Source: Fidelibacterota bacterium (GTDB lineage Bacteria > Fidelibacterota > SORT01). From it: a stretch of 64,000 nt of DNA. Positions 2,950 through 62,346 of the stretch are shown piece by piece. The notes under the pieces were generated by a model. The model was not told the DNA's origin. It made no database searches and saw nothing but the letters and a program-made list of their open reading frames with translations. Location of the stretch: contig JACZYG010000015.1 of NCBI GenBank assembly GCA_022571215.1, positions 63-64,062 of the forward strand, in the 5' to 3' direction. Position 1 is the first letter of the stretch, and every line of letters begins with the position of its first letter. The translations under genes were made by a program, and so were the position numbers.

Positions 2950-4722
2950 TCATTTGATAAGCAGCATTTTTCTGGTTTGAGAAAAATTACCGGACAATAA
3001 TCTGTAAAAATATATTCCCGACGGCTGTTCGGACGCATCCCAACTGAGTTGATGACTGCCTGCCGATTGCATCCCTCCATCCAGCAGAGCGACTGTCTCA
3101 CCACTCAAGTTGAAAATTGAGATTTTTACTTCTCCATAAATAGGCAGTTCATAGTTTATGGTTGTTACAGGATTAAAAGGGTTGGGATAGTTTTGTGATA
3201 ATAAATACGAACGAGGCAGCTCCATAATTTTTTCTGCGGATACAATAAATCCTGCCGATTCGTTTATTCTCAAAACGCGGTTGACGGCAATATCGCTGAA
3301 TTCCTGTATCACTCCTGATGGCCAATAAACAGTGATATTATCTACTGTTTCCGCTTTGCCGAGACCGAATCCTATCACGAGTGAATTCATCGACGCAAAA
3401 CTCGCTCCGGCAGCCACCTCTTTATATTGAGTTATGCCACCGGATTCCACTTTAATTTTGGCTCCCACTCCGCTCCTGTTACTTTCTGTGCCTTCTAATT
3501 TCACTTTTATCCAATTATTACCTGAATTCGGATTAATGAATAATTTTAATTCGCTTCTTAATACATTGATAAAGAGCAAATCGCCATAACCGTCGTCGTT
3601 GAAATCAGCGCACACGCTCGCTCTCCCGTCTCCGGCGTCCGCGAGTCCTATGCTTGACGCTATCTCCGAAAAACCGGCTGTTCCCTTATTTTTATAGAAA
3701 ACATTGACTTCGCTGTATAGCGAGTCCCAGGACATGGCTCCGTTCACTACATAAATATCCTCATCGCCATCGTTATCGTAATCAAAAAAATTCACTCCCC
3801 ATGCCATTGTTTTATTCAAGATCCCTAATCTTTCGCCGCTGTCTTCGAATGTTCCATCGCCATTATTCGTAAATAGAAAATCTCTTGCAAGATTTGAAAC
3901 ATAGATGTCTATATCGCCATCATTATCGTAATCGGAAAAATCCACTCCCATACCCGCGCCGACGGGAATATTCAATTCAGCTGCCAAATTAGTGAATGTG
4001 CCATCGCCGTTATTATGATATAGAGCGTCCCGTCCGAACTCATTTACTACGTAAATATCAGGGTAATTATCGTTATCATAGTCAAAAACCCCAACCGCTA
4101 AATCCGTTCCCGTATACCCGGTGCCCGATGATTCGGTGACATCACTAAATGTGCCGTCACCGTTATTGCGATAGAGCCTGTTGGCATAATCTATGATAGC
4201 CTGCGAGCGGTTTAAAACGTAAATATCAAGATTTCCGTCATTGTCGAAATCCATCAATGCCGCGCTTGTGCTTGGTCCGGTATCCCCTACTCCCGCCTCT
4301 TCCGTCGCGTCATAAAAAACAGCCGCTCCGTTGTTCAGGAATAGTTTGTTCTCCCCGAAATAATTCGTCAGATAGATGTCCGCATCGCCGTCGTTATCTA
4401 TATCGCTGCATACAGCTCCCCATCCTTCAGAAAGATCAGCCACACCGGACTCTTGACCAACTTCCGAAAACGTCCCATCTTTATTATTCAGGTAAAGCTG
4501 ATTTGGAGAGCCCGCGCCATTTGTGATATAAAAGTCTTCACTACCGTCCCCGTCGAAATCGCACAAAGCTATTCCGCCAATATACATGAATCCAACGTGC
4601 TGATAATCTATGCCGGCCGATAGCGCTATTTCCTGAAATGTTTTTTGACTCCGAGCGTCGTCGTAGCAAAGCAGCAACAAAATTATTAATGATATATTAC
4701 GCGGTATCGTCATTTCCGGCAA
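2950..4722 (-). CDS. FG-GAP/VCBS-repeat (ASPIC/UnbV-like) secreted protein with T9SS C-terminal sorting domain
   Basis: Repeated D-x-D-x-DG-x-x-D-hyd-Y/F calcium-binding FG-GAP-type repeats; signal peptide; C-terminus NYPNPFNP...KISIFNLSGETVALL matches the T9SS (Por) CTD. Confidence 0.75.
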   Translation of the reverse strand: MPEMTIPRNISLIILLLLCYDDARSQKTFQEIALSAGIDYQHVGFMYIGGIALCDFDGDGSEDFYITNGAGSPNQLYLNNKDGTFSEVGQESGVADLSEGWGAVCSDIDNDGDADIYLTNYFGENKLFLNNGAAVFYDATEEAGVGDTGPSTSAALMDFDNDGNLDIYVLNRSQAIIDYANRLYRNNGDGTFSDVTESSGTGYTGTDLAVGVFDYDNDNYPDIYVVNEFGRDALYHNNGDGTFTNLAAELNIPVGAGMGVDFSDYDNDGDIDIYVSNLARDFLFTNNGDGTFEDSGERLGILNKTMAWGVNFFDYDNDGDEDIYVVNGAMSWDSLYSEVNVFYKNKGTAGFSEIASSIGLADAGDGRASVCADFNDDGYGDLLFINVLRSELKLFINPNSGNNWIKVKLEGTESNRSGVGAKIKVESGGITQYKEVAAGASFASMNSLVIGFGLGKAETVDNITVYWPSGVIQEFSDIAVNRVLRINESAGFIVSAEKIMELPRSYLLSQNYPNPFNPVTTINYELPIYGEVKISIFNLSGETVALLDGGMQSAGSHQLSWDASEQPSGIYFYRLLSGNFSQTRKMLLIK

Positions 4723-7033: not shown

Positions 7034-8365
7034 ATGAAATCACTGAAAATCACGCTCGTTCTTTTATTATCGCTATCAACGCAGGTTGTCGCTTTATCTC
7101 AAGAAAGAGGAAAAATAACCAGAGAACGGGGCGAATTTATTGAAACGATCGACAAAACTTACAAAGTAAAAAAAGGAGGTTCGCTTTTTCTCAGCTCCGA
7201 CCAGGGTCCTATCTATGTTGAAACATGGTTTGAGGATAAAGTGCGTGTTGTTGTAATCAAGAGGGCTGACGTTAGAAACGAGTCGCGCGCTGAAGAGATA
7301 TTCGAAGAGATTGAGGTAACCATAACCAAATCGGGCAAAGACGTTACGGTCAAGGCTAGAACGCCATGGAGGCGAAGAAAAAGAAGTTCCGTCCTCTCTT
7401 TTGAAATTACCGTACCATATAAATATAACGTGGATGTTGAAACCGACGGCGGCAGCATACGAATAGCTGATCTTGAAGGCAACCTAAACGCGGAAACTGC
7501 CGGTGGCAGTATTAAAGTCGGGCAAATATCGAATGGTGACCTAAATGTTGAGACTGCGGGCGGCAGCATCAAGATAGTTGGGATTAAAAATGGCAACGGA
7601 ATAGCAAGTACAGCAGGCGGCAGCATAAAAGTAGGCGATGTATCCGGTGATCTTAAAGTTCATACTTCCGGCGGCAGCATCGAATTGGGCATAATCGGAG
7701 GCAAAGCGAAGGCTCATACTTCCGGTGGCAGCATTAAGGTCAAGGAAGGCGGCATTGACTTAGACGCCTCCACTTCCGGCGGAAGCATCTCTGTTAATTA
7801 CGCAAACGGTCCCGTGAAAGTTCGCACGTCCGGCGGAAGCATTTCCATTGGCGACACAAAAGGTGATATTGACGCAAGTACAGCCGGAGGGAGTATCCAC
7901 ATAGGTGAATCCGGCGGTCGGGTCAACGCAAGCACTGCCGGCGGCGGCATAAGCGTCGAAGGTTCGCAAGGACCGGTAATAGTTGAAACAGCCGGCGGAA
8001 GCATAGAAATCACCAATGCCCGGGGATTCATAGAAGCGGTAACAGCGGGTGGAGATGTGGAAGCTGAACTGATCGTCAGCGACAAGAATATAGATACTCA
8101 TGTCACTCTTGAAACAGCCGGAGGAGATATAACGCTCTATCTTCCCGCCGAACTCTCAGCCACTTTTGATGTTGAACTTGAGATTACACGTCGCGCCTGG
8201 AGAGATTACAAGATATATTCGGATTTTCCGCTTAGCATAAGCGACGATGCTGATGGGTGGCGAGGAAATAAAATCATAATTGCCGAAGGTGATATAAACG
8301 GCGGTGGTGATAAGATCAAAATAAGAACTAAGAACGGTGATATTCGTATCAAAAAGATCAGATAA
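7034..8365 (+). CDS. DUF4097 (putative adhesin / LiaG-like beta-helix) repeat protein
   Basis: Signal peptide; more than 14 tandem ~20-aa repeats of (E)T(A/S)GGSI(K/E/S)V...; sits directly downstream of the sigma/anti-sigma pair, as LiaG-like genes do. Confidence 0.7.
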   Translation: MKSLKITLVLLLSLSTQVVALSQERGKITRERGEFIETIDKTYKVKKGGSLFLSSDQGPIYVETWFEDKVRVVVIKRADVRNESRAEEIFEEIEVTITKSGKDVTVKARTPWRRRKRSSVLSFEITVPYKYNVDVETDGGSIRIADLEGNLNAETAGGSIKVGQISNGDLNVETAGGSIKIVGIKNGNGIASTAGGSIKVGDVSGDLKVHTSGGSIELGIIGGKAKAHTSGGSIKVKEGGIDLDASTSGGSISVNYANGPVKVRTSGGSISIGDTKGDIDASTAGGSIHIGESGGRVNASTAGGGISVEGSQGPVIVETAGGSIEITNARGFIEAVTAGGDVEAELIVSDKNIDTHVTLETAGGDITLYLPAELSATFDVELEITRRAWRDYKIYSDFPLSISDDADGWRGNKIIIAEGDINGGGDKIKIRTKNGDIRIKKIR

Positions 8366-8420: not shown

Positions 8421-8837
8421 AATTGATGTCAACCACCTTCCGCCTTAATTCCCCGCCATACCGATGCCGTGTCCGGCTTTGCCGTACGGACGGCGCGGAC
8501 TGCTGCCTCTTCGAGACTTCCCCTCCTATTTATAATGGGGAGATGAAAAATTCCCCTCTATCGGAACCCTACCCGACATCGGTTAAGCGGGCAAAGACGA
8601 CGAATCTCCCCTCCTTACAAAGGAGGGGATAAAGGGGTGGTTGTATTATAATTTGCACCGTGATGTGTGGTCGGCTTTTTAGCGTGCGGTCAGGGCAAGC
8701 CCTAACTCGCACAATAAGACTAAGCGGGTTTTTATGGAGTGCTCCCAACGGTGTTCCTACGGAACATCAACTGTGTGCTGATTAGGCAACAAGCCTCTCA
8801 ACCGCCACGAATCAATTATTCCTAAGCACAAAAAAAT

Positions 8838-16321: not shown

Positions 16322-16480
16322 GCGGTAACTTAACGGTTTTTCACTTTGACGGCAAGAAATTCATGCGGGTCGGAATTTTTACAATCCCGCCTTAGGCGGC
16401 GACAGACTTACCGTGCTCACAAGTCAACCACCCCTGCCTCTTCGAGGCTTCCCCTCCTTAAAAAGGAGGGGGAAAGTCAC

Positions 16481-16530
16481 CGTCATTGCGAGACTTAATT
16501 CATTAGGTCGAAGCAACCTTATAATCGCAA
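16481..16530. repeat. MITE-like palindromic element, GTCATTGCGAG family (short copy)
   Basis: gtcattgcgag ... aatcgcaat inverted termini; shares a core with copies at 23311, 33112, 36576, 41635, 55451 and 55757. Confidence 0.6.
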
Positions 16531-16602
16531 TACAGAAAGACCCGAGTTTACTTCGTCGTTTCTCTCCTCGTAAAGACGGCACATTATACCACTCTTAATA
16601 CG

Positions 16603-16720
16603 CCCTGACCGCACTCACGAGTCAACCACCCCTGCCTCTTCGAGGCTTCCCCTCCTTCAAAAGGAGGGGAAAATAATGCTCCGCAGGAGCGGGCCTGCCC
16701 GACTAATGTCAGGCGGGGGA
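16603..16720. repeat. composite intergenic repeat (gccctgaccgcac module, CCCCTCCTT hairpin, gcctgcccgactaatgtcaggcggg module)
   Basis: The same modules recur at 16400-16475, 41834-41880, 48623-48680, 55665-55815 and 8684-8712. Confidence 0.6.
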
Positions 16721-16816
16721 TATTATCTATCGGTAATTTCTAATTTAACCAAATAGGATAAATCACACCCCTCGTCCGTCAGATGACGGACACTTCCCTC
16801 AAGGGGAGAGGTTGAT

Positions 16817-16852
16817 CGTCTTTGCGAGGATTGGACTCCTCGCAAAGACACG
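16817..16852. repeat. perfect hairpin of the GTCTTTGCGAGGA family
   Basis: cgtctttgcgagga ttgg actcctcgcaaagacacg. Confidence 0.6.
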
Positions 16853-19914: not shown

Positions 19915-20004
19915 AACTCTTGACACACCCCGCCCTTCGGGCACCCCTCTTAATAGAGGGGTGGATTCGAATCCAAAGGATGAGAAGACGGGGTGTGTCA
20001 AGAG
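19915..20004. repeat. about 90-bp composite hairpin element (module B: CACCCCTCT-loop-AGAGGGGTG with long outer arms)
   Basis: ctcttgacacaccccg...cacccctcttaatagaggggtg...cggggtgtgtcaagag; partial copies at 22125, 23497, 25511, 25948 and 48431. Confidence 0.65.
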
Positions 20005-22124: not shown

Positions 22125-22192
22125 GAGCACACCCCGTCCTTCGGACACCCCTCTTTTTAGAGGGGAACTTTAATCCCATCTTCGATGGGATA
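22125..22192. repeat. conserved double-hairpin element (hairpin B plus aatcccatcttcgatgggata)
   Basis: gaggggaactttaatcccatcttcgatgggata is 33/33 identical to 48474-48506. Confidence 0.7.
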
Positions 22193-22250
22193 CACGCTGC
22201 TGGGATGAGATGTCAGGCGAGGGGTGTAATCGTTCGGTAACGATAATTTT

Positions 22251-22303
22251 GGAGTGCATTTACTGCGTCAATGCAACATCAACACAGTTGATGTACTCCA
22301 TAT
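22251..22303. repeat. 53-bp nested-palindrome element (ggagtgcat...catcaacNNagttgatg...atgcactcc), copy 1
   Basis: Four copies in the window (22251, 33231, 41904, 50442) at roughly 85-90% identity; each has outer and inner inverted repeats. Confidence 0.8.
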
Positions 22304-22387
22304 ATCACACACTCCATTTTGCCCCGGTGGCAATGCCACACTCAAGGGATGAGGCTTTCCCTGACCCGCACCTTACCGTCTTTCCGA

Positions 22388-22485
22388 ACCTCGATTTATT
22401 GAGGTGAAGGAATCTCAGAACTATCCTCAATCGCAATTATGAGATTGCCGCGTCGCTATGCTCCTCGCAATGACAATCGCAAGCG
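22388..22485. repeat. MITE-like element (ccttgatttat...gaatctcag / gagattgcc ... ctcctcgcaatgac)
   Basis: Related to the copy at 33112-33190 and to the GTCATTGCGAG family termini. Confidence 0.55.
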
Positions 22486-23310: not shown

Positions 23311-23441
23311 CGTCTTTGCGAGACCTGATTTATCAGGGCGAAGCAATCTCAGATTTTGGGGTAGCAGGAAAGAGATGAGATTGCTTTGTCATCCGTCAAC
23401 TGACGGACGAGGGGTGTCATAGCTCGATGACAATAATTCTG
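23311..23441. repeat. MITE-like element, GTCTTTGCGAG family
   Basis: cgtctttgcgagacctgatttatcagggcgaagcaatctcag is about 90% identical to 36576-36618; internal gcaatctca/tgagattgc inverted repeat. Confidence 0.65.
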
Positions 23442-23570
23442 GAAAGAACATCAAAATCACACATCCGTCACTCTGTGCCTCCTCCCTCGAGGGAGGAGGT
23501 TTACACACCCCGCCCGCCAGCCAGACATCGGTCTGGTTGATAGAGGGAAACATTAATCCCCGTTTGTGAA

Positions 23571-25947: not shown

Positions 25948-26018
25948 TAGTTACACACCCCGCCCTTCGGGCACCCCTCTCAAGAGGGGATCTTTTATCC
26001 CATCCTTGATGTGATATA
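25948..26018. repeat. module-B element (left arm plus hairpin plus atcccatccttgatgtgatat hairpin)
   Basis: cacaccccgcccttcgggcacccctct is identical to the 19924 copy. Confidence 0.65.
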
Positions 26019-31647: not shown

Positions 31648-33093
31648 TCATTTTCTCTTCCAGAAAGTCCTGCTAAACAATACTATAACGGTAAAAAGTT
31701 CAAGTCTTCCAAGAAGCATACAAAAGTTCAAAAGCAATTTAGCCGCCGCCGGCAGATGGGAATAATTGTCCGTTGGTCCTAAACTCCCGAGGGCGGGACC
31801 AATATTGCCGAGAGCTGACGCGGTTACCGAGACGGCGCTGACTATATCCAACCCCAATCCTGCCATAATAATGCTTACCGCAACGAAAATAGCCATATAA
31901 AATAAGAAAAAACCGAGAACGTTTTTTATAATGTCATCTGATATTATCCGGTCGCCCAATTTAACGGGATAGACAGCGGTCGGATGAACCAGCTTCCTTA
32001 TCTCATATACGGCGTGCTTAAAAAGGATAACCACTCTTATCACCTTCATTGAACCGCCCGTTGAACTTGCGCAAGCTCCTACAAACATCAATGCGACTAT
32101 CAATAATTGTCCTACCGGCAGCCAAAGTTCATAATCCGCGGTTATATAACCGGTTGTGGTCACTATAGAGACTACCTGAAAGAGAGAATGTCTCAATGCC
32201 AATTCGGGGGAGATTGTTTCACTCAGATATACGATTCCGAGAACAATAACGGTGATAACAGAAATTATGCCTAAATAAAATTTGAATTCCTTATCATGTA
32301 TATGCGCTTTGATATCTCCATTGAACATTCGGAAATGAAGAGCGAAATTCGAACCCGCAAGAATCATAAAAAATATTATCACATAATCGAAATATGCGCT
32401 GTTGTAGTGCGCTATGCTCGCATTCTTGGTCGAAAATCCTCCGGTTGCCATCGTACCGAAAGTATGACAGACGGAATCGAAGAGATCCATGCCACCCGCC
32501 CAAAGCATCGTGGCTTCAACAACGCTTATGAGTATGTATGTGATCCATAACAATTTTGCCGTCTCTCTAATCCGGGGAGTAAAACGGTCTTTCGTAGGAC
32601 CGGGCGCTTCCGCCTTGAAAAGTTGTGAAGCCCCTATGCCCAACATCGGTAATATCGCAAGAGAAAAGACTATAATGCCCATCCCTCCGAGCCAATGAGT
32701 CAGAGAGCGCCAGAAAAGTATACCATGAGGTAACGCCTCTATATCGGTGAGAATAGAGGCTCCGGTCGTCGTAAATCCCGACATCGACTCAAAAAATGCG
32801 TCTACCGGAGACTGTATCGCGGAAGACAAGAGAAAAGGAAGCATTCCGAATAAAGCGCTCGTTATCCAGCCGAACGTTACTATGGCGAAACCGTCTCTAA
32901 CCCTGATATCAGAGCCGCCCCGGGTACTTACCCATAGAAGGAATCCTGTACCGATGGTTATTCCCGCCGATAGAAGAATAGCTTTTGTATCACCGTCACC
33001 GTAGTAAATGGAAAAAGGCAGCGCGAGAAGCATTGTTGTCCCGAGGAAGATCCATAACGCCCCGAGAACATTTAATATTTGTTTCAGATGCAT
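31648..33093 (-). CDS. trkH: TrkH/KtrB-family K+ uptake permease
   Basis: Repeated M-P-M segments with selectivity-filter-like MSGFTTTGAS and TTTGY; 481 aa. Confidence 0.9.
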   Translation of the reverse strand: MHLKQILNVLGALWIFLGTTMLLALPFSIYYGDGDTKAILLSAGITIGTGFLLWVSTRGGSDIRVRDGFAIVTFGWITSALFGMLPFLLSSAIQSPVDAFFESMSGFTTTGASILTDIEALPHGILFWRSLTHWLGGMGIIVFSLAILPMLGIGASQLFKAEAPGPTKDRFTPRIRETAKLLWITYILISVVEATMLWAGGMDLFDSVCHTFGTMATGGFSTKNASIAHYNSAYFDYVIIFFMILAGSNFALHFRMFNGDIKAHIHDKEFKFYLGIISVITVIVLGIVYLSETISPELALRHSLFQVVSIVTTTGYITADYELWLPVGQLLIVALMFVGACASSTGGSMKVIRVVILFKHAVYEIRKLVHPTAVYPVKLGDRIISDDIIKNVLGFFLFYMAIFVAVSIIMAGLGLDIVSAVSVTASALGNIGPALGSLGPTDNYSHLPAAAKLLLNFCMLLGRLELFTVIVLFSRTFWKRK

Positions 33094-33111
33094 TTTACAT
33101 ACTCAACCGTA

Positions 33112-33190
33112 GTCATTCCGAACCTTGATTTATCGAAGTGAAAGAATCTCATATTTATCCAATCGGTAGTATGAGATTGCCCGCCTGTCA
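33112..33190. repeat. MITE-like element (gtcattccgaaccttgatttatcgaagtgaaagaatctcat...atgagattgcc)
   Basis: Same architecture as 22388-22485, 23311 and 36576. Confidence 0.55.
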
Positions 33191-33230
33191 GTCGGAGTGT
33201 ATGATCGCCTTTTACGTTAACGGCCCTTTT

Positions 33231-33283
33231 GGAGTGCATTGACTGTGTCAATGCCGCATCAACATAGTTGATGCACTCCATAT
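33231..33283. repeat. 53-bp nested-palindrome element, copy 2
   Basis: ggagtgcattgactgtgtcaatgccgcatcaacatagttgatgcactccatat. Confidence 0.8.
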
Positions 33284-33520
33284 AAAAACACGCCGTCTTC
33301 TCATCCCTTAGGGATTTGAATCCTCCATAGGAGTTCCTTCGGAACACCCCTCTTGATGAGGGAAATTTCTCCTTCCATCCTTTAATAAAGGAAGGAAACG
33401 TCATCGTCAATTTCATATTTTCATGTTGCCTCGGCTCTGATTAAACCAGAGAACTCTATAGTGTATTGCAGTGTTTATCAGGCAGTAGTATAATTCATCT
33501 AAAGTAAAATATTAATATTA

Positions 33521-36575: not shown

Positions 36576-36679
36576 TGTCTTTGCGAGAGCTGATTTATCA
36601 GGTCGAAGCAATCTCATGTCCGGTTAAACGATGAATACTGAATTGATTCGGATCAACACTCCTCGCAATGACAATAATC
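36576..36679. repeat. MITE-like element with terminal inverted repeats gtctttgcgagag / ctcctcgcaatgac
   Basis: About 104 bp; internal gcaatctca; its 5-prime half is about 90% identical to 23311-23352. Confidence 0.7.
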
Positions 36680-36732: not shown

Positions 36733-36930
36733 TTTCCCCTCTTAATTAGAGGGGAATTTTTCGCATCAGAGATGCGATGAGTGATTATTACACACTCCGT
36801 CACTTTGAAACCACCCCGTCTTTCGGCTCCGCCTAAATCCACCCCTCCTTCTTAAGGAGGGGATAAATGGGTGCCCCGCTTTCAGCGTGATTAGTCCCGC
36901 ATCGGCGCGGAAATGCACAGGCGGGAGTTG
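36733..36930. repeat. cluster of G/C-rich hairpins (cccctcttaattagagggg; cccctccttcttaaggagggg; gcatcagagatgc)
   Basis: Consecutive palindromes between the GNAT and tolC genes. Confidence 0.6.
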
Positions 36931-41400: not shown

Positions 41401-41628
41401 TTGCGTCCGATAATTCTTACATCAATAACGACCATCGCGGGTATTCTTCCGCTTGCTTACGGACTTGGCGGTTCTGATCCATTCCTGGCTCCGATGGCAT
41501 TGGCGCTCGGATACGGCATACTTTTCGCAACACCACTTACTCTTCTGCTCCTTCCCTGTCTCTATATGATATTGGACGATATAGGCAGAGGATTCCGGTT
41601 TATGAATAGGCTTGTTTTTAGAGGGTAG
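38500..41628 (+). CDS. RND efflux transporter permease (AcrB/HAE1-like)
   Basis: 1042 aa, 12-TM topology with two large periplasmic loops; conserved TM4 motif GLIVDDAIVIAENI. Confidence 0.9.
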   Translation: MKRVIRFFAERHLLANLLIVVILIIGLGSARTIKRNMFPSVDFGQLMITTRYPGASPEDVELNVTNPLEKELSSVDGIDLMTSYSMENISVISINIDTDVDDSEKVKRDIRDAVNRVTKFPPEVTESPYIFEITTDNIEIIWIGVAGEVPYPELREYAKGFRKKLENVNGVSRVDEKGLHDREIKVEVSTAAIEAYQIPLKDFVSAIQGRNVRATGGSFESYTSDKNIVTLAQFRTPEEVGEVIVRSTFEGPHITVNDLATIYDGFEPEKVRFRMNGKQAIGFTVFKKGNSDIIRVTDSILQLMEDERDKVPQGIELLHASEKSRFVKNRLSILANNGIIGLILVSVVLVLFLNFTTAFWVAMGIPLAMLSVLFLAPFFDVTIELISLMGMVIVIGLIVDDAIVIAENIHRHREKGKSALDSAVDGVYGVIKPVFATIITTALAFGTMFFMSGIMGKFIVSIPIVIILALGVSFFESLIILPSHIMKGMEKREKKRLAKTGSADNPNLKNDWFHRVRDKFQRLMAAILSYRYVIFLVFIVMLIGAVSFAYLHMQFILFPGNTAENFFITVELPTGSSLDATEDKIKEIEAVLQALPEDEIQSHMAILGSLGGGGFFTPGESENWAFIIVTLTPYNERKRNANMIVADLREQTDKLEGFDAVRYRVDAGGPPVGRPIAIRVIGADNDMRTSLADSVTAYLASIKGVTDIDRDDKLGKEQVEIKINYQRLSELGLTVADIAQNVRLAYDGQVVTRVRYGDEDVGFRVILEESTRNRPDYLSELKIPNRRGRLIQLKEVAQFEIGPGPSRYFHYEEERTVTITADIALGDLTPLQATQKAVDHFDLTTDWPGMRFVIGGEAEKTQESIVSLGITMLTAVIGIYFVLILLFNSVTQPLLVIIAIPFGLIGVIAAFAMHGEPLGFLAIMGVIGLMGVVVNDSLILVNYINVHRESEPDKNVKRIVAEGTATRLRPIILTSITTIAGILPLAYGLGGSDPFLAPMALALGYGILFATPLTLLLLPCLYMILDDIGRGFRFMNRLVFRG

Positions 41629-41634
41629 AGATTC

Positions 41635-41736
41635 TGTCATTGCGAGGAGTCGAAGACGACGCGGCAATCTCAATGCTATCGGTATCACAATTACGAGATT
41701 GCTTCTCCCGATAAATCGGGATCGCAAAGACGATAG
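41635..41736. repeat. MITE-like element, GTCATTGCGAGG family
   Basis: tgtcattgcgaggag...gcggcaatctca...gagattgc...atcgcaaagacgatag. Confidence 0.6.
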
Positions 41737-41903
41737 TTCGTGCGAGTTAGGATTTCAAAACCACGCCATCTGCTGTGGTTCTGACTGCCACAGAATCCTG
41801 ACCAGCACGGTTTTCCTCCCCCTTTGAAGGGGGTGCTCCGAAGGAGCGGGCCTGCCCGACTAATGTCAGGCGGGGGATGTTATTGTTCGGTATCGACAAT
41901 TTT

Positions 41904-41956
41904 GGAGTGCTTTGACTGTGTCAATGCAGCATCAACTCAGTTGATGCACTCCATAC
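41904..41956. repeat. 53-bp nested-palindrome element, copy 3
   Basis: ggagtgctttgactgtgtcaatgcagcatcaactcagttgatgcactccatac. Confidence 0.8.
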
Positions 41957-41981
41957 AATCCTGACTCGCACGCACCCTCCA

Positions 41982-48506: not shown

Positions 48507-48793
48507 GTGCAGTCACAGGACTCCGAAGGAGTTTTTTGTGGCAGTCAGGACTTGTCCTGACGCCTTTAGAACGATACTATGCGGTCAGGATAAATCCTGA
48601 CTCGCACCCGCTCTCTTTGCGCATCCGCCTGCCGGCGGATGAAGCCTGTCCAACTGATGTCAGGCGTGGATTTCAGGCGGGTCGTGGTTTTTTCTACTCG
48701 TCCGTTTCCCTCGCTATCTTGACTCTTACTTGCTTTCAAGGTATCTTTGTTCGGTTTAAACGCAACATTTAGGACGCCTGACCGTATATTTAT

Positions 48794-50274: not shown

Positions 50275-50441
50275 TTCGCTGAAAATCTAATTTAGTTTTC
50301 TTGTTTCTTTAACTTCAAAACATAATCCATGCTGTCCGATCTCTTAAAATGTATCGAGATTGGCCGTCAGACCGATGTTGGGCAGGTTATTAGAGGGGAA
50401 TTTATTCTCTCCTCCTTTTTAAGGAGGGGAAACGATGTTAT

Positions 50442-50495
50442 ATGGAGTGCTTCAACTGAGTTGATGCAGCATTGACACAGTCAATGCACTCCAAA
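50442..50495. repeat. 53-bp nested-palindrome element, copy 4 (opposite orientation)
   Basis: tggagtgcttcaactgagttgatgcagcattgacacagtcaatgcactcca; preceded by the hairpin ctcctcctttttaaggagggg (50411-50430). Confidence 0.8.
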
Positions 50496-50606
50496 TAGAT
50501 CGTAATTGCGAAAAACCTAATCGGCACTTTCATATGCCGGCTGACAATTCAAATAAAAACGGCGATCCGCAAGGACCGCCGCTCTTACTTCACCTAAGAT
50601 CTGAGA

Positions 50607-55219: not shown

Positions 55220-55391
55220 TGTTCAGTTCCCTCGCTCTTTTAATAGTCTATCAATAATGTCGATTTCTCGAAGAAAAATATTACAGCAACAATCAAAAAC
55301 ATGCAAGAGTTATATTAGGAATTAGCGAACTCGAACCGGATAGTGAGATATTGACCGAATCTTAACTCTTAACACACCTCGTCCTGCGAGC

Positions 55392-55444
55392 GCCCCTCTT
55401 ACACAGAGGGGAATTTATAATCCCTCCTTATCTAAGGAGGGGAA
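55392..55444. repeat. tandem G/C hairpins (cccctcttacacagagggg; ccctccttatctaaggaggg)
   Basis: Module A and B family members. Confidence 0.6.
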
Positions 55445-55450
55445 ATTCAT

Positions 55451-55570
55451 CGTCATTGCGAGGAGCAGCGAACCCAGCCGTTGGCGGGGTATGCTGTGAC
55501 GTGGCAATCTCATAATTGCGGTTGTGGATAGATTTGAGATTGCTTCGTTGCTACGCTCCTCGCAAATACA
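55451..55570. repeat. MITE-like element with terminal inverted repeats tcattgcgaggagc / gctcctcgcaaat
   Basis: About 115 bp; internal ggcaatctca/tgagattgc inverted repeat; its leader ggaggggaaattcatcgtcattgcga is 26/26 identical to 55742-55767. Confidence 0.7.
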
Positions 55571-55756
55571 GGTGTTAGCTGGGTCTGACTGAATTCTGGC
55601 GGGGGAGGAACACGGTAAGTGTCAATAGAATCAACCGAAAGTGACGTACTATTTGTCAATTATGTGCGAGTCAGGGCTTGCCCTGACCGCCACAAAATAA
55701 GTCAACCACCCCCGCGCTTACAGCGCGTCCCCTCCTTTCAAGGAGGGGAAATTCAT

Positions 55757-55900
55757 CGTCATTGCGAATCCACCAACTGGCGGATGAAGCCTGCCCGACT
55801 TTGGTCAGGCGGGCAATCTCAGAACCTATTTACGAGAATATTACAATTGAACTGAATCATCATTGTGAAATTGCTTCGACGCCATGCGGGCAATGACATC
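55757..55900. repeat. MITE-like element (gtcattgcgaat...gcaatctcag...gcgggcaatgacatc)
   Basis: Same termini family; contains the gcctgcccgacttggtcaggcggg module shared with 16690, 41855 and 48650. Confidence 0.6.
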
Positions 55901-56185: not shown

Positions 56186-56202
56186 AAGAGCTCTCAATCT
56201 CT

Positions 56203-57416: not shown

Positions 57417-59330
57417 CTATTGAATCTGCGGATTCTCCCGCACATTCACGATAAGCGCGGTCTCTTCTAATTGACGGTCGTTCACCCTTCTGCCCATAAG
57501 GTTTGAGATGTATGTAGCGGTATCGTTTCGATTTTTGTTTTCTTTTTTAAAAATGCGCGGCAGCCTGTCAGTGAAATTATCTATTTCAAGCTCCGCGCTC
57601 CATGGTTCGAGCAGATTCCAACGTTTCGATCGAATCCTGGCTCTTATGTCTATCCCGATTTCGTCATCCTGTAACGTAATGGTATCACCGACTTCAAGCT
57701 TATCATACGGATACCCGTCCGGATCCGCCTCATACAGGTCAATTGCTGAAACGGCATACTTAATCTTCGTGTTCTTAGCCGATTGAAGGGCGTCAAATCC
57801 CTCATCCCAGAGGATTCTGGCTCCGCTTATCGGATAAAATTCGTTGGGAACGCTAAGTTTAGTGGACTTTTCGAGAATCACCGAATCTATATAGAAGTCA
57901 GTGTCAATTGAATTGGAGAGTATCTTAACGATTCCTCCGGTACCCTGCGCCGTGATTCCCTCTATTAGAAGTTGAGTCCAGACTCCGGTCAAGCTTGTTT
58001 GAGCGGTTTTTCCCGAGTTCGACGGTTGGTCAGCGACACCGTCATACAGCTCGAGTTTTACATTACCTTGAGATACATATACCCATACATATAAGGAATA
58101 TACGCTATCCACCTCGAGTGTCACGGATTGCTTCATTCCCTCTCCCGGATCCGCCTCGGTGATCAGCTGACTCTTGGAGCCGTATTTGATGAAATCAGTG
58201 TTTATGTTTTCTGTAACGGGGAACGCCGCCCCGAGCGTTACTACCGACCAGTTATCCGCTATTCCGGAGCTGTAATTTCCCGAAAAATCGGTGTTAAAAA
58301 GTAAATTTCTCGCCTCGACCCTTGATCTGTTAAAATACGTTGATTCTATCCTTCCGAAGGAATCTATCGAACCCGCATCCCTGATCTGTTTAATATCGCT
58401 CCCGGAAGCATCGGCGACTATCTTAAAGTAATCTCCCACGCTGAGTCCCGAAAACACCGTAGTGACAACCAGTTGACCCCCTGCTATCGAGTCCGTTATA
58501 AGCCTTCTCGCTCCGATTGTGGCGCTGCCTAATGCTCTTGTAATTTCCATATAGTAGTTGTTCCAGGAGTCGTCCGAAGGTACCAACCGCTGATGCGAGG
58601 AGAGTGTCGCGCCTGAAATGGAGAAAATGATATGTTCTGCGGCTTCTGTGCCGAGAACAGCATCGCCGCCTATATCCGCTGGCGGTTCTCCGCCGCCGAC
58701 AGGATACACCACGTTGAATAGTTCCCTTGTATCAATATTCCTGCGTATGCCTTTGAGGTTCCGCGCATAACGGATACGAGCCTCCTTCAGACTCCCACGC
58801 CTCTTTATGCTGACCGTTTTGTCGTTATTTACAATCAGATCGGTTCCGAGTCTCTCCCTAACCACATTAAGAAGGTCAAGAACGGAATTGTAACTTAAAA
58901 CCAGATCCAATTTGGTTGCGGGGCTTATCGTTCCCACGGAAAAAGACGATTCTCCGAGAATTTCATTTATAACCGTTGAAGGTTCCGCCTGCGCGTATGG
59001 AGTCCATTTCGGATAGACCTCGTCAAGCATATCGTATTTCAGATGTTCGCATTCAAGCCGTCCTTCCGGGGAATTGTTCCCTCTTCGCAGCTCAAGCTTT
59101 TGCCGAATCCTGAACGACTCGTAGCTCTCATCATCGAGGTTCACGACTCGAATCACTTCAAGCGGGTTTATCGAACTCCACAGCTCACTACTGAGCGTTA
59201 TCCCGATGGATAAGGTGTTTATACCGTTTAGTTCATCTACTCGTTTAGCATAGATAAGATCTGCCGTCGGAAAGATCGAACGGCGGGCGCTGTCTGATCT
59301 ATCGAAAAGTTCAAGCCTATGCTTTGTCAT
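57417..59330 (-). CDS. phage tail-tip protein, Tal-like (prophage-endopeptidase-tail N-terminal domain)
   Basis: N-terminus LELFDRS...VDELNGINTLSIGI...ESFRIRQ follows the conserved siphophage Tal/gp21 N-terminal pattern; 637 aa; immediately follows the Dit-like gene. Confidence 0.5.
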   Translation of the reverse strand: MTKHRLELFDRSDSARRSIFPTADLIYAKRVDELNGINTLSIGITLSSELWSSINPLEVIRVVNLDDESYESFRIRQKLELRRGNNSPEGRLECEHLKYDMLDEVYPKWTPYAQAEPSTVINEILGESSFSVGTISPATKLDLVLSYNSVLDLLNVVRERLGTDLIVNNDKTVSIKRRGSLKEARIRYARNLKGIRRNIDTRELFNVVYPVGGGEPPADIGGDAVLGTEAAEHIIFSISGATLSSHQRLVPSDDSWNNYYMEITRALGSATIGARRLITDSIAGGQLVVTTVFSGLSVGDYFKIVADASGSDIKQIRDAGSIDSFGRIESTYFNRSRVEARNLLFNTDFSGNYSSGIADNWSVVTLGAAFPVTENINTDFIKYGSKSQLITEADPGEGMKQSVTLEVDSVYSLYVWVYVSQGNVKLELYDGVADQPSNSGKTAQTSLTGVWTQLLIEGITAQGTGGIVKILSNSIDTDFYIDSVILEKSTKLSVPNEFYPISGARILWDEGFDALQSAKNTKIKYAVSAIDLYEADPDGYPYDKLEVGDTITLQDDEIGIDIRARIRSKRWNLLEPWSAELEIDNFTDRLPRIFKKENKNRNDTATYISNLMGRRVNDRQLEETALIVNVRENPQIQ

Positions 59331-59331
59331 A

Positions 59332-62300
59332 TTAGAGCCACTTCTTATTATAATTTAACTTTATTCCGGCGTTGGCAACTTTGTTGAACAAAACCGACTT
59401 ATTGCTATCCATATTCGGGAAGAAGGAACCTGAATCCATTGACGCTATCGCGTTCGTAAACGTGTTCGCCGTGGAATCAGCAAACTCAATCGTTTCTTTC
59501 TCGCTGTCTATCAATAACTTATCACCGTCAGATAAAGTTTTGGTCAGGCTGATTTTTGCATTGTTATTTTTAACAGGTTTGCTCTGATTCGAGTATTTCA
59601 GCGCCTCGGCAGCAGATAATTCTCTTGATAACAGATAAATTTCATCGTATATGGCATCAGGAATATTTGGCTCCGAGTTACCCACAAAATTTAATACGTT
59701 CGGATTATTTAAAAGAGCATCGGTGTTGCTGTGCGCGGCGCCAGCCACTCCGTTAATATATATCTGAACGCCGTTCATACTGCCCCAAGTGCAGACCATA
59801 CAGATTCGGTCGCCGGCATTATGAGTTGAGGCGAATATTGCTTCCCTGTTCACGCTTGCCACCCTTTTTCTAAAAGTCCAGAAATCGCCCGTAAAATCAT
59901 AATAAGCCTTCAGATAATTACTTACGTTTGCGAACAGCTCGAATATCATCGGTTCGTTTGTATCGTCAACCCAGTCAGATCCAAACATCGGCTTGAACCA
60001 TACAATAACGCTACCCTCGTTCTTATTTCCCGTCACGCTCCACGAAAGCGTGTCTCCGCCGTCTATACGCAACCCCTGACCGAACTTTTCTTGTGAATAG
60101 GAGACGATTTCGGGAGTCGCTTGTGAGGCAGCGTTTGCCGTCACAATGTCGAGTTCGATTAGGTTTACATTATCAAGAGAAAGCGTCCCTCCCGTTGTCC
60201 TGAATTGCAGGTTTTTCTTATTTCCTCCGGTAGAAGCACTCTTTATTAAGACAATATGTTTCCTAACGGTGGTTGCAAGAATGACGGACGCAATAGTTAT
60301 ATTTCCATCTTCCAACCTTAAGTCAGGAGTCCCGGAAATCGCTGTAATTTCGTAATTTAGCATATACCATGTATCATCAGTAACGCTTGAAATCACCTGA
60401 GACAATCTTATTGTGCCATCAACGTAAGTAAAGTTTGCCGTTCCGCCCGAGATTGTGAGAGTAGATGAACCGACCGGGGCTTTATCCCAGTCTGTATCAG
60501 AGCCGAAATATCCGTTTTGAACAAGGCTTGGCTGACAATCCATCTGGTCTATATATACTGTTGCGTCACCGTTAGCATTTAGTTTCCTTATTCTGAATTG
60601 GTGAGAGGAGCCGCCGTCTGCCTCAAAAGTTCCCTCAAAATAAAGCCACTTTCCCGTTGCGAAACTGACACCCATATCATCTGCGCCCGTATCGAGTCTG
60701 CGAGTCAAAACAATTGTGTTACCCACGATATCAAGTTGCAATTCGTCAGAAGCGTGAAGGGTAGATACATAGACCCAAAATCTATAAAAGTAATCCTGGT
60801 TATCTATGAGGGTGCTTGTAGGATTTTGGGCATATGCGCCGCTTGGGTCGCCCACCCAATCTAACTTAGCGGATTGAGTATCATATTTAACAATAGTAGT
60901 TTCATTGGTAATGTCAACATTTGAAGAAATCCACTCGCCAGCGGGGTTGGTCTCTTGATTGCCCGTTGAAAGTTTATTATCAACCCACGGATATTGAACG
61001 CTAACGGGTTCACCGCTTGACAGTTCACCTACCGAGAGAAGCTTTGTGTCAGGCGTAACGTAAGGCTCTGCGCCTGCGCCTGAATTGTAGAGAGCTGCTA
61101 CTTCGGCATCGGTCAACGCCCGCTCGAATATCTGCCAGTGAATTAAACCGTCAAATAACAAACCGGCATCCAAGCCGGTGTCCTGTCCCATTGATAGCGT
61201 GGAGTCCACCGCAGCGACAGCCCCTAACGCGCCCGTATCGCCGCCCTCAGCCGCATTGAGATCTATCTGAACACTGTTCGAGGAACTGTCAATATTATTA
61301 TTCAGGTCCCATCTACACAGTATAAAATACCAACTTCCCGCCGCAAAGTTCGCGGAGGTAACGGTAATTGAAGCGTTCCTATTTGTTCCTGCGGCTTTTA
61401 CATCAATGGCTAAGAGATCCGAATCGTGCTTGCGAATAACAATACTATTATTTGCATCGCCCACTTCTTCAAACAGAGAATGATTTACTCCGTCATCACC
61501 GTCAAAATAAGGCTTAACCCATAAAACTATTGTTCCCTGATATGGATTAAAATTAGCGTAATTCTGACCGTTGACATTATTCCCTCTGTCGTAATACAGA
61601 TTGTCATTATTGACTAACTGTATCGCTTTTGATCGCTGAGACGTGAGAGCTTTTCGGGTCCTATACCCGAATTTATTGGTGAAATTTCCTGATACGGTCG
61701 AGAGAGTAACATCGCTGAGGTTATCGTTATAGTCGAAGTGCGCTACTCCAACCTTGTCCCCTTCAATCAGCATAGGATTTGTGACCGCTCCGCTCACCTC
61801 GATGACCGGTTTACTCCGTACATTGCCGGTAGTGAAAACCTTGAACTCATCCGCTTTTCCCGCCATCGTAGCCTCCGTAAGCGTATTGGAAATTGCGAAC
61901 GGATCGTCACATCGGAAGCGCGCGCGGAAAAGTTTCATCTCGTTACTCATCCACTGATGGGAAATATCCGGCAATTCAAATATACCGTCAAAGACCGCAT
62001 TGTAATGCCTGTCCGGTTCATCACCGAATTCCAGCTTACCGTATTTGATTCCATCCGTTATGGACTCTTCACCGGGCGGCAGCAGCTCATCTTCCATGGC
62101 GAATAGAGACTTCAGATTCTCAATATTACTCATCAAAGTCGCATGGGAAACACCCTCGACGGTTCCCTCGATCTCAATAATTCTCGGCTTATACGTCTGC
62201 TTGAACGCCATCCTTCCATGCCGCCCGGGGATGGCGACGCTTTTAACCTCGATCGAAGGCTTACCACGCCCGCTGACATTCGTTATCTCGGTAAAGAGGT

Positions 62301-62346
62301 CACGAATAGATTTGCCGTTCCACTTGATTGAATCGGTGAATGCCAT
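59332..62346 (-). CDS. phage distal tail protein (Dit-like, Sipho_tail) extended by two LamG/concanavalin-like modules
   Basis: N-terminal ...VKSVAIPGRHGRMAF... resembles the Dit IPGRDG signature; two segments GTIVLWVKPYF...WYFILCRW and GSVIVWFKPMF...ICMVCTW look like LamG-type jelly-rolls; 1004 aa, no signal peptide. Confidence 0.5.
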   Translation of the reverse strand: MAFTDSIKWNGKSIRDLFTEITNVSGRGKPSIEVKSVAIPGRHGRMAFKQTYKPRIIEIEGTVEGVSHATLMSNIENLKSLFAMEDELLPPGEESITDGIKYGKLEFGDEPDRHYNAVFDGIFELPDISHQWMSNEMKLFRARFRCDDPFAISNTLTEATMAGKADEFKVFTTGNVRSKPVIEVSGAVTNPMLIEGDKVGVAHFDYNDNLSDVTLSTVSGNFTNKFGYRTRKALTSQRSKAIQLVNNDNLYYDRGNNVNGQNYANFNPYQGTIVLWVKPYFDGDDGVNHSLFEEVGDANNSIVIRKHDSDLLAIDVKAAGTNRNASITVTSANFAAGSWYFILCRWDLNNNIDSSSNSVQIDLNAAEGGDTGALGAVAAVDSTLSMGQDTGLDAGLLFDGLIHWQIFERALTDAEVAALYNSGAGAEPYVTPDTKLLSVGELSSGEPVSVQYPWVDNKLSTGNQETNPAGEWISSNVDITNETTIVKYDTQSAKLDWVGDPSGAYAQNPTSTLIDNQDYFYRFWVYVSTLHASDELQLDIVGNTIVLTRRLDTGADDMGVSFATGKWLYFEGTFEADGGSSHQFRIRKLNANGDATVYIDQMDCQPSLVQNGYFGSDTDWDKAPVGSSTLTISGGTANFTYVDGTIRLSQVISSVTDDTWYMLNYEITAISGTPDLRLEDGNITIASVILATTVRKHIVLIKSASTGGNKKNLQFRTTGGTLSLDNVNLIELDIVTANAASQATPEIVSYSQEKFGQGLRIDGGDTLSWSVTGNKNEGSVIVWFKPMFGSDWVDDTNEPMIFELFANVSNYLKAYYDFTGDFWTFRKRVASVNREAIFASTHNAGDRICMVCTWGSMNGVQIYINGVAGAAHSNTDALLNNPNVLNFVGNSEPNIPDAIYDEIYLLSRELSAAEALKYSNQSKPVKNNNAKISLTKTLSDGDKLLIDSEKETIEFADSTANTFTNAIASMDSGSFFPNMDSNKSVLFNKVANAGIKLNYNKKWL

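Follow-up and report, generated by a model that had tools for sequence, protein, structure and literature searches.

Head-to-head hairpin repeats resembling Ssn-related motifs in the intergenic spacers of a Fidelibacterota bacterium

The stretch of 64,000 nucleotides from a Fidelibacterota bacterium that is considered here (the window) contains nine intergenic elements which are probably gene-less, head-to-head pairs of the kind called Ssn-related motifs (SRM) or, in Neisseria, NTS; as such they would belong to the superfamily of CGTC/TGTC-tagged REPs and would be tied to the nuclease Ssn. By their sequence they are of the SRM/Ssn type and form a divergent class, set apart by the published search motif, in an uncultured lineage. 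The association between GIY-YIG genes and hairpin repeats is itself already published (PMC11893778).

Boxes of the GTCATTGCGAG type, with at most one mismatch, occur 11 times in the window, compared to 1.0 on average, and never more than 4, in 100 shuffles that preserve the dinucleotides. The nine elements (A to I, Table 1) are spread over six spacers and are all intergenic in a window which is 86% coding. The repeats described in an earlier, sequence-only reading of this DNA are real, as the motif is present at 9/9 of the sites listed there and the boxes far exceed expectation. Its intervals hold in that all nine sites contain the motif, but the start of C was about 10 nt off and, in D, the remainder of the interval up to 23441 belongs to a different repeat family. 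The identity of about 90% that had been claimed for the copies at 23313 and 36576 is borne out by the left arms of D and F, which are 93% identical across 43 nt, as is the identical leader before the two copies near 55 kb, where the same 28 nt are found at 55434 and 55740, upstream of H and I. The loops are unrelated between the window copies, with the boxes common to all of them.

Table 1. The nine repeat elements of the window, their arms and the loops between the arms
Copy	Extent	Strand	Left arm	Loop	Right arm	Description
A	16482..16577	+	16482-16519, GTCATTGCGAG...GCAACCT		16545-16577, degenerate	head-to-head dimer
B	16818..16849	.				32-nt perfect palindrome GTCTTTGCGAGGA-ttgga-CTCCTCGCAAAGAC, outer boxes only
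C	22378..22474	+	22378-22417, TTTCC/GGAAT stem, ATTTAT-loop hairpin	22 nt	22440-22474, canonical	heterodimer
D	23312..23384	+	23312-23351	24 nt	23376-23384, inner box TGAGATTGC only	outer half of right arm replaced by other repeat module
E	33112..33180	+	33112-33151, ATTCC/AGAAT stem	20 nt	inner box 33172-33180	right arm truncated, as in D
F	36577..36672	+	36577-36616	22 nt	end at 36672 with CTCGCAATGAC, degenerate	
G	41636..41732	-	41636-41672		41694-41732	complete dimer, orientation opposite to other copies
H	55452..55570	+	55452-55512, long variable insert	22 nt	55535-55570	interval named in the sequence-only reading
I	55758..55897	+	55758-55821, nested GCCTGCCCGAC..GTCAGGCGGGC hairpin (another module, ~55790-55816)	44 nt	55866-55897	

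In the common orientation, an element reads Y-GTC(A/T)TTGCGA(G/A), a variable segment and (G)AAGCAATCTCA on the left, followed, after a loop of 20-24 nt (44 nt in I), by TGAGATTGC, a variable segment and CTCGCAATGAC-R on the right. It thus consists of two inverted arms with their tags pointing outward, i.e. in a head-to-head arrangement; within each arm, Y-GTC and ATTGC come first, next an internal loop rich in GA and a variable stem-loop, and GCAAT with its CTC tail comes last. The internal gcaatctca/tgagattgc inverted repeat that had been noted before is present, but each instance is simply the 3' half of an arm. The tag YGTC precedes the stem in 9/9 window copies, giving the general form (C/T)GTC-AT...AT-CTC with outward-facing tags, and a C lies directly 3' of GCAAT in the window arms; in arms from other genomes this C was built into the search pattern and is therefore no independent evidence. 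Those arms come from a scan of one genome per species with the exact arm pattern, which gave at least 120 stretches, 164 arms being recovered from the matches listed. A pyrimidine occupies position -1 in 148 of these 164 arms and the outer flank is otherwise unconserved; the arm boundary has been placed at the tag because conservation stops beyond this pyrimidine.

The middle of an arm is usually a short stem-loop whose stem is free to vary, and across the 164 arms these stem-loops are dominated by GNA triloops closed by a C:G pair. Such a closed GNA triloop is an exceptionally stable DNA mini-hairpin, d(GCGAAGC) being an example. The halves of the ATTGC/GCAAT stem covary within the arm: the 5' half-stem is non-canonical in 66 arms, and in 19 of these the 3' half is its exact complement, where permutation gives an expectation of 0.93 and never more than 5 in 2000 rounds. 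The variants include ATCGC/GCGAT, ACTGC/GCAGT and ATTCT/AGAAT, and the stems of copies C and E in the window approximate ATTCC/GGAAT. This covariation implies that each arm forms its own hairpin. In nearest-neighbour DNA folding, hairpin-type arms take on the expected shape, with a basal stem of 4-5 bp followed by the internal loop and the variable distal hairpin, although these folds are weakly stable (z -0.6 to -2.5). As single-arm folding is not significant by thermodynamics, with arms of the GAGCRTAGCGAC type having no fold at all in the model, it is the covariation that carries the case for hairpins in the arms.

A strong fold of the whole element is restricted to copies whose two arms are of the same type, namely G, H, I and F (H at -31.1 kcal/mol, z -5.5); the palindrome B folds at -14.5 kcal/mol with a z of -7.1. 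By contrast, no single long hairpin forms in the DNA model for the heterodimers C and A, whose arms are unable to pair mutually. This restriction of strong folds to same-type arms means that the selected unit is the arm and not a long cruciform. Intra-arm covariation and the existence of heterodimers together show that the individual hairpin arm is the unit under selection.

Hairpins with this layout have been described in two lines of work. Chenal et al. 2025 (PMC11893778) named the repeats NTS in Neisseria and SRM in general, and linked them to ssnA, a single-domain GIY-YIG gene of family cd10448; at least one SRM lies near 71% of the homologs, and both flanks carry one in 42% of them. Binding by SsnA is confined to the hairpin as single-stranded DNA, with double-stranded DNA, RNA and the reverse strand left unbound, and Ssn is a site-specific ssDNA endonuclease which cuts a few nucleotides upstream of the hairpin. 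Binding depends most critically on the C just 3' of the palindrome and cleavage is governed by the three nucleotides just 5' of it, while the NTS/SsnA system as a whole modulates natural transformation in N. meningitidis. The authors also point out the IS-like NTS-ssnA-NTS layout and the parallel to REP/RAYT (PMC11893778). Di Nocera et al. 2013 (PMC3733652) described CGTC/TGTC-tagged REPs, in which the tag is unpaired, the stem begins with A-T and the tail is 3 nt long; CGTC REPs are mostly head-to-head dimers, often heterodimers, have no transposase linked to them and include dRS3 of Neisseria and RPE-4/6 of Rickettsia.

The window elements share with SRM/NTS the oriented hairpin whose palindrome begins with A-T, is immediately preceded by an (H)GTC tag and is immediately followed by a C, a repeat length of 20-50 nt, the many gene-less copies in spacers, the wide range of phyla and, in loci outside the window, inverted copies which bracket a single-domain GIY-YIG gene of about 90-95 aa whose product is homologous to that of the Neisseria locus. 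They differ in that the stem of the window class is bipartite (5 bp of ATTGC/GCAAT, the GA-rich loop and the distal hairpin), in contrast to the uninterrupted 8-9 bp of NTS, in that the tail is CTC(A) and not CYRG, and in that the window has no ssn gene and comes from an uncultured Marinimicrobia-like lineage. Owing to this interrupted stem, the published SRM motif HGTCWYN(0-2)YYVSBRHN(0-5)WNVSBRGN(0-2)RNCYNB matches none of the window arms and 0/164 of the ATTGCGAG-type arms, whereas the control repeats of Neisseria, Azospirillum, Rhizobium, Aeromonas, Sphingobium and S. meliloti do match. The elements are accordingly regarded as a sequence class that diverges within a system already known. 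The likeness to CGTC REPs covers the unpaired CGTC/TGTC tag, the A-T start of the stem, the short unpaired tail, the head-to-head dimers including heterodimers, the mostly intergenic location and the missing transposase. Here the published families have a continuous stem of 8-9 bp, a loop of 4-5 nt and a CCA tail, compared to the interrupted stems, variable loops and CTC tail of the window arms, and no GIY-YIG partner was identified in that work (PMC3733652).

The link to such a partner comes from the genes that lie next to arms in other genomes. When the 1147 ORFs lying within 600 nt of arms in the genome loci were clustered, the recurrent coding family was a GIY-YIG protein of about 90 aa; the remaining recurrent clusters were made up of repeat translations and, in four loci, of response regulators. 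In loci from Planctomycetota (L044), Oscillospiraceae (L042) and Omnitrophota (L090), a GIY-YIG ORF (PF01541, 88-96 aa) is located exactly between inverted arms, where it occupies the position of the 20-24 nt loop in the window copies. A decayed copy of this arm-bracketed arrangement is seen in Falkowbacteria (L079), and in the Oscillospiraceae locus a gene-less dimer directly adjoins the full element. Full elements of the arm-gene-arm type measure 353-578 bp. The partner protein matches PF01541 and its closest solved structure is 1ZG2, a UPF0213 protein. In a tblastn search of plasmid-collection records with the protein from Planctomycetota, a N. gonorrhoeae locus surrounded by NTS was found (44% identity, E 9e-17), as were genes of S. 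meliloti, A. lipoferum and N. aromaticivorans, which like Neisseria are among the species listed for CGTC REPs (PMC3733652), and genes of Aeromonas, Rhizobium and Sphingobium; the matched genes are bracketed by, or embedded among, inverted CGTC REPs/NTS.

The association was then approached from the protein, with 80 metagenome loci fetched by protein similarity alone; as these are the closest relatives of arm-adjacent proteins, the flanking fraction may be inflated. With a relaxed pattern, inward-facing arms lie on both sides in 53 of 71 testable loci, a pattern whose background is high at about 31 chance matches per 64 kb. Because of this noise the association was re-tested with exact boxes and a positional control: arms were found on both sides in 27/59 protein-chosen loci and on at least one side in 46/59, while random windows of the same metagenome loci have them on both sides in 0/1259 and on one side in 39/1259 cases.

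No GIY-YIG or ssn homolog was found within the 64-kb window, and the protein search for a cognate ssn of the Fidelibacterota lineage gave only Deltaproteobacteria and Dehalococcoidales names. In that search for Ssn-like proteins nearly all of the 8000 scored candidates passed E 1e-10, most of them on contigs shorter than 2 kb. Three of the proteins (P0255, P0261 and P0315), which by name come from Deltaproteobacteria, Desulfatiglandales and Dehalococcoidales MAGs, are 78-89% identical to one query, and an identity of this degree across MAGs of different phyla implies recent cross-phylum transfer. Cassettes of the ssn-like type are located between sufB and sufC on A. lipoferum AZO_p3 (L219), between gltA and lpxB in S. 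meliloti (L221) and, on Planktothrix p1 (L222), between an MmeI-type R-M gene and the DISARM gene drmA.

The genes next to arms bear on the label of miniature transposable element which had been attached to the repeats. Classical MITEs such as Correia, Nezha and MITEAba12 are deletion derivatives of an IS which a transposase, of the DDE type or another, mobilises in trans by reading their termini, and the window elements do resemble them in being small (30-150 bp), non-coding, multicopy and confined to spacers, with inverted termini, presence that differs between relatives, whose orthologous spacers lack them, and a gene-carrying form elsewhere. Target-site duplications, which were to be sought around the copies, are nevertheless absent from the nine window copies and from 56 full-length elements, the flanks being simply Y|GTC...GAC|R. 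The autonomous IS with the same termini that was to be sought as a partner has not been found either, as no transposase recurs among the 1147 arm-neighbouring ORFs and the recurrent family is the GIY-YIG protein of about 90 aa. Further, the boxes are shared between copies while the loops are unrelated, covariation is found within arms and not between termini, with selection acting on the intra-arm hairpins, and CGTC REPs are likewise without a linked transposase (PMC3733652). An origin as classical MITEs is for these reasons highly improbable, and the label is right only in part. Group I introns with a homing endonuclease, ribozymes, CRISPR repeats and integron attC sites were rejected as well, the arms being too short and having neither a catalytic core nor a matching consensus.

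A closer parallel is found in the REPIN-RAYT systems, which were reportedly described by Nunvar in 2010, by Bertels and Rainey in 2011 and by Ton-Hoang in 2012. In both cases two inverted hairpin repeats make up a non-autonomous doublet, the enzyme gene is flanked by repeats, target-site duplications are lacking and spacers are mosaics, with recognition in the REPIN system directed at a ssDNA hairpin with an unpaired tag. The tag is GTC in the window elements and GTAG in REPINs, the boxes are conserved across phyla as opposed to the lineage-specific REPs, and the partner is a GIY-YIG nuclease without a covalent HUH/Y1 intermediate. A Y1/HUH transposase of the RAYT type was not found among the 1147 ORFs neighbouring arms. 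To our knowledge, strand-transfer activity has not been described for any GIY-YIG nuclease.

By homology with the characterised SRM/Ssn system, the following model can be proposed for the SRM/NTS-like pairs. When arms become single-stranded, e.g. during replication, transformation or conjugation, each would fold to a hairpin with an unpaired Y-GTC tag and a 5-bp basal stem of ATTGC/GCAAT, followed by the purine-rich internal loop and the variable distal stem-loop and terminated by the C and a short tail. An Ssn of the cd10448 GIY-YIG family, with its gene at another place in the genome, would bind to the hairpin of one strand but not of the other and then nick the single-stranded DNA a few nucleotides 5' of the tag. 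The arrangement arm-ssn-arm would be the autonomous-looking form, of which the window copies would be the version without the gene, similar to REPINs in relation to RAYTs. A cognate Ssn is presumably encoded by the source genome, and it may spread or maintain the gene-less copies, as has been proposed for REPINs and RAYTs, or have a host-level role, e.g. in restricting incoming ssDNA or in modulating recombination.

Alternatively, the elements could act in cis on RNA or transcription as terminators, attenuators or mRNA stabilisers which are conserved by the host and have no link to a nuclease. This reading is suggested by the location of some copies, with G beginning 7 nt past the acrB stop codon, F lying 30 nt after a small ORF and D and E just before start codons, by the stable folding of the long dimers and by the known co-option of REP-type repeats for such purposes. 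Across the window, however, positions vary between upstream, downstream and the spacers between divergent or convergent genes, and relatives lack the elements in their orthologous spacers, so that the regulatory or terminator motif which the sequence-only reading had named as its alternative is not supported. No Rfam family was found for the arms, with the window scanned at gathering thresholds and nine arm-rich loci at E values up to 1; matches in these scans were limited to tRNAs, a 6S RNA and one chance snoRNA. In addition, near-identical boxes occur in more than 20 phyla among the matches listed and track the encoded protein, not a regulated gene, the loops are DNA-type GNA triloops and SsnA does not bind RNA (PMC11893778). 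A role as host-conserved RNA or transcription elements is therefore quite unlikely.

The phyla among the matches listed include Chloroflexota, Planctomycetota, Nitrospirota, Patescibacteria, Bacteroidota and Firmicutes, with several Proteobacteria classes, Atribacterota, Omnitrophota, Zixibacteria and others as further carriers of arms. The exact arm pattern was also found in at least 120 stretches of IMG/VR contigs classified as viral (L230-L349), which may be true phage DNA or the host flanks of proviruses. Translation of arms elsewhere yields recurrent peptides, e.g. CHCEERSDEAIS and SLRGAKRRSNL.

Comparison of the window to its relatives shows that the spacers turn over. The closest named relatives of the window AcrB are from Candidatus Marinimicrobia MAGs and SAGs, with identities of 94% and 89%. 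Contigs from several metagenomes that are more than 99% identical to the window have no indels, while a strain of about 98% identity (L006) has lost or never had the interior of copy I. In the window, the spacer between trkA and trkH measures 427 bp and holds copy E and other modules, compared to 40 bp (L212, L213) or about 100 bp (L211, L214) in relatives with 77-80% identical TrkA; a further contig with 92% identical TrkA (L215) ends 35 nt into this spacer and is uninformative. Downstream of acrB, neither of the two close relatives with 94% and 89% identical AcrB (L216 and L217) has copy G, and the whole spacer is non-homologous. Relatives bear arms at other positions, and two related metagenome loci differ by a composite insertion of 262 nt which contains arms. 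The comparison of orthologous spacers that had been suggested for the elements has thus given relatives without them, but no clean single-element empty site in the relatives compared, as the differences are whole mosaic blocks or composite insertions.

Two observations on these spacers concern material outside the arms. At the trkA-side edge, window positions 33420-33480 weakly resemble the minus strand of 33050-33100, which comprises about the first 50 nt of trkH and the ancestral spacer end; the inserted block of the 427-bp spacer may therefore be flanked by a long degenerate target duplication. Two contigs of about 97-98% identity (L006 3544-3644 and L008 803-903) contain an additional module, about 90 nt long, that belongs to the GTCAGGA..TCCTGAC hairpin family; it is 88% identical to window 48534-48607 and missing from the corresponding window site at 56188-56200.

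Turnover of this kind must be considered when asking whether the SRM/NTS-like pairs are selfish or have been domesticated. In a domesticated host system, the arms would be marks for an Ssn-type nuclease which restricts or shapes recombination or the ssDNA that enters by transformation, conjugation or ssDNA phages, a role that has been proposed for NTS in Neisseria, and they would no longer be mobile. This is consistent with the modulation of natural transformation by NTS/SsnA (PMC11893778), with a full cassette that has been kept at the same locus in three related metagenome loci, L184, L207 and L210 (82-88% nucleotide identity), and with the state of the window copies, which are old and diverged outside the boxes. 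It is less easily reconciled with the total turnover of spacers between relatives whose proteins are 89-94% identical, the cassettes inside operons and defence loci (sufB/sufC, MmeI/DrmA), the closely similar Ssn-like proteins across phyla (78-89% identical) and the arms on contigs classified as viral. These four features look like selfish spread and are at the same time compatible with domestication, which is a possible, if less probable, state of the system.

The point with real upside is whether Ssn mobilises gene-less dimers. That such dimers are copied or moved in trans by Ssn through single-stranded DNA, which would make arm-ssn-arm a class of transposon with a GIY-YIG nuclease instead of a known transposase, is a tentative and rather doubtful proposal. 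If it were true, the ATTGCGAG...GCAATCTC class, with more than 20 phyla listed and its presence on contigs classified as viral, would be the main horizontally spreading form of this transposon class, and the half-arms found 16-39 nt upstream of full arms (32/724) could be footprints of that movement.

These truncated 5' half-arms consist of GTCATTGCGAG plus about 10-28 nt and directly precede a full arm, most often at a spacing of 24 nt, at 32 of the 724 box-1 sites. Examples are L044 5022-5070, L085 844-887, L141, L160, L334-L342 and L222 935-1003, and the Planktothrix plasmid has three tandem units of 23 nt. The half-arms may have been left behind where the tag was nicked and repaired.

Assigning this repeat family to a system with a known enzyme makes specific experiments possible. 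The published SRM motif misses a very widespread class of arms with interrupted stems, and censuses of Ssn-linked repeats are therefore probably underestimates. The Fidelibacterota lineage, with its dense and fast-turning-over mosaic spacers, is a usable case for comparative work. On the practical side, such repeats break metagenome assemblies and create spurious ORFs. In the window, this probably applies to the ORFs at 33084-33416 (-), of 110 aa, and 41422-41727 (-), of 101 aa, which run largely and partly, respectively, through repeat modules.

The spacers of the window are mosaics of at least six repeat families, reminiscent of BIMEs and NIMEs. A separate hairpin family of the form CCCCTCCTT-N3-5-AAGGAGGGG is found at 8608-8639, 16451-16482, 16649-16680, 36842-36873, 50409-50440, 55420-55445 and 55730-55751. 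The beginning of 4/9 SRM copies (A, B, H and I) lies 9-10 nt downstream of such a hairpin, an adjacency that points to a composite unit or else to a favoured context for insertion. A double-hairpin repeat of 55 nt (TGGAGTGCATTGAC..GTCAATGC..CATCAAC..GTTGATGCACTCCA) occurs at 22250-22304, 33230-33284, 41903-41957 and 50443-50497; its copies are 76-91% identical and the inner palindromes are swapped in the copy at 50443. Two further families are ACACACCCCGCCCTTCGGGCACCCCTC..., at 19923-19959, 22127-22163, 25953-25989 and 55372-55408, and GCCTGCCCGAC-N3-GTCAGGCGGG..., at 16697-16749, 22211-22253, 23401-23443 and 41864-41906, the latter also being nested in copy I.

Adjoining the spacer of H and I, positions 57417-62346 hold two large minus-strand ORFs whose counterparts in L006 have Pfam matches to Prophage_tail and, weakly, to SPP1_Dit; the region looks like a prophage remnant. 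Periodic repeats are also present within coding sequence, where ORF 7034-8365 has units of 54-57 nt (at 7477-8011) and ORF 2950-4722 has units of about 150 nt (at 3743-4420); both ORFs encode repeat-domain proteins which are unrelated to the SRM-like elements.
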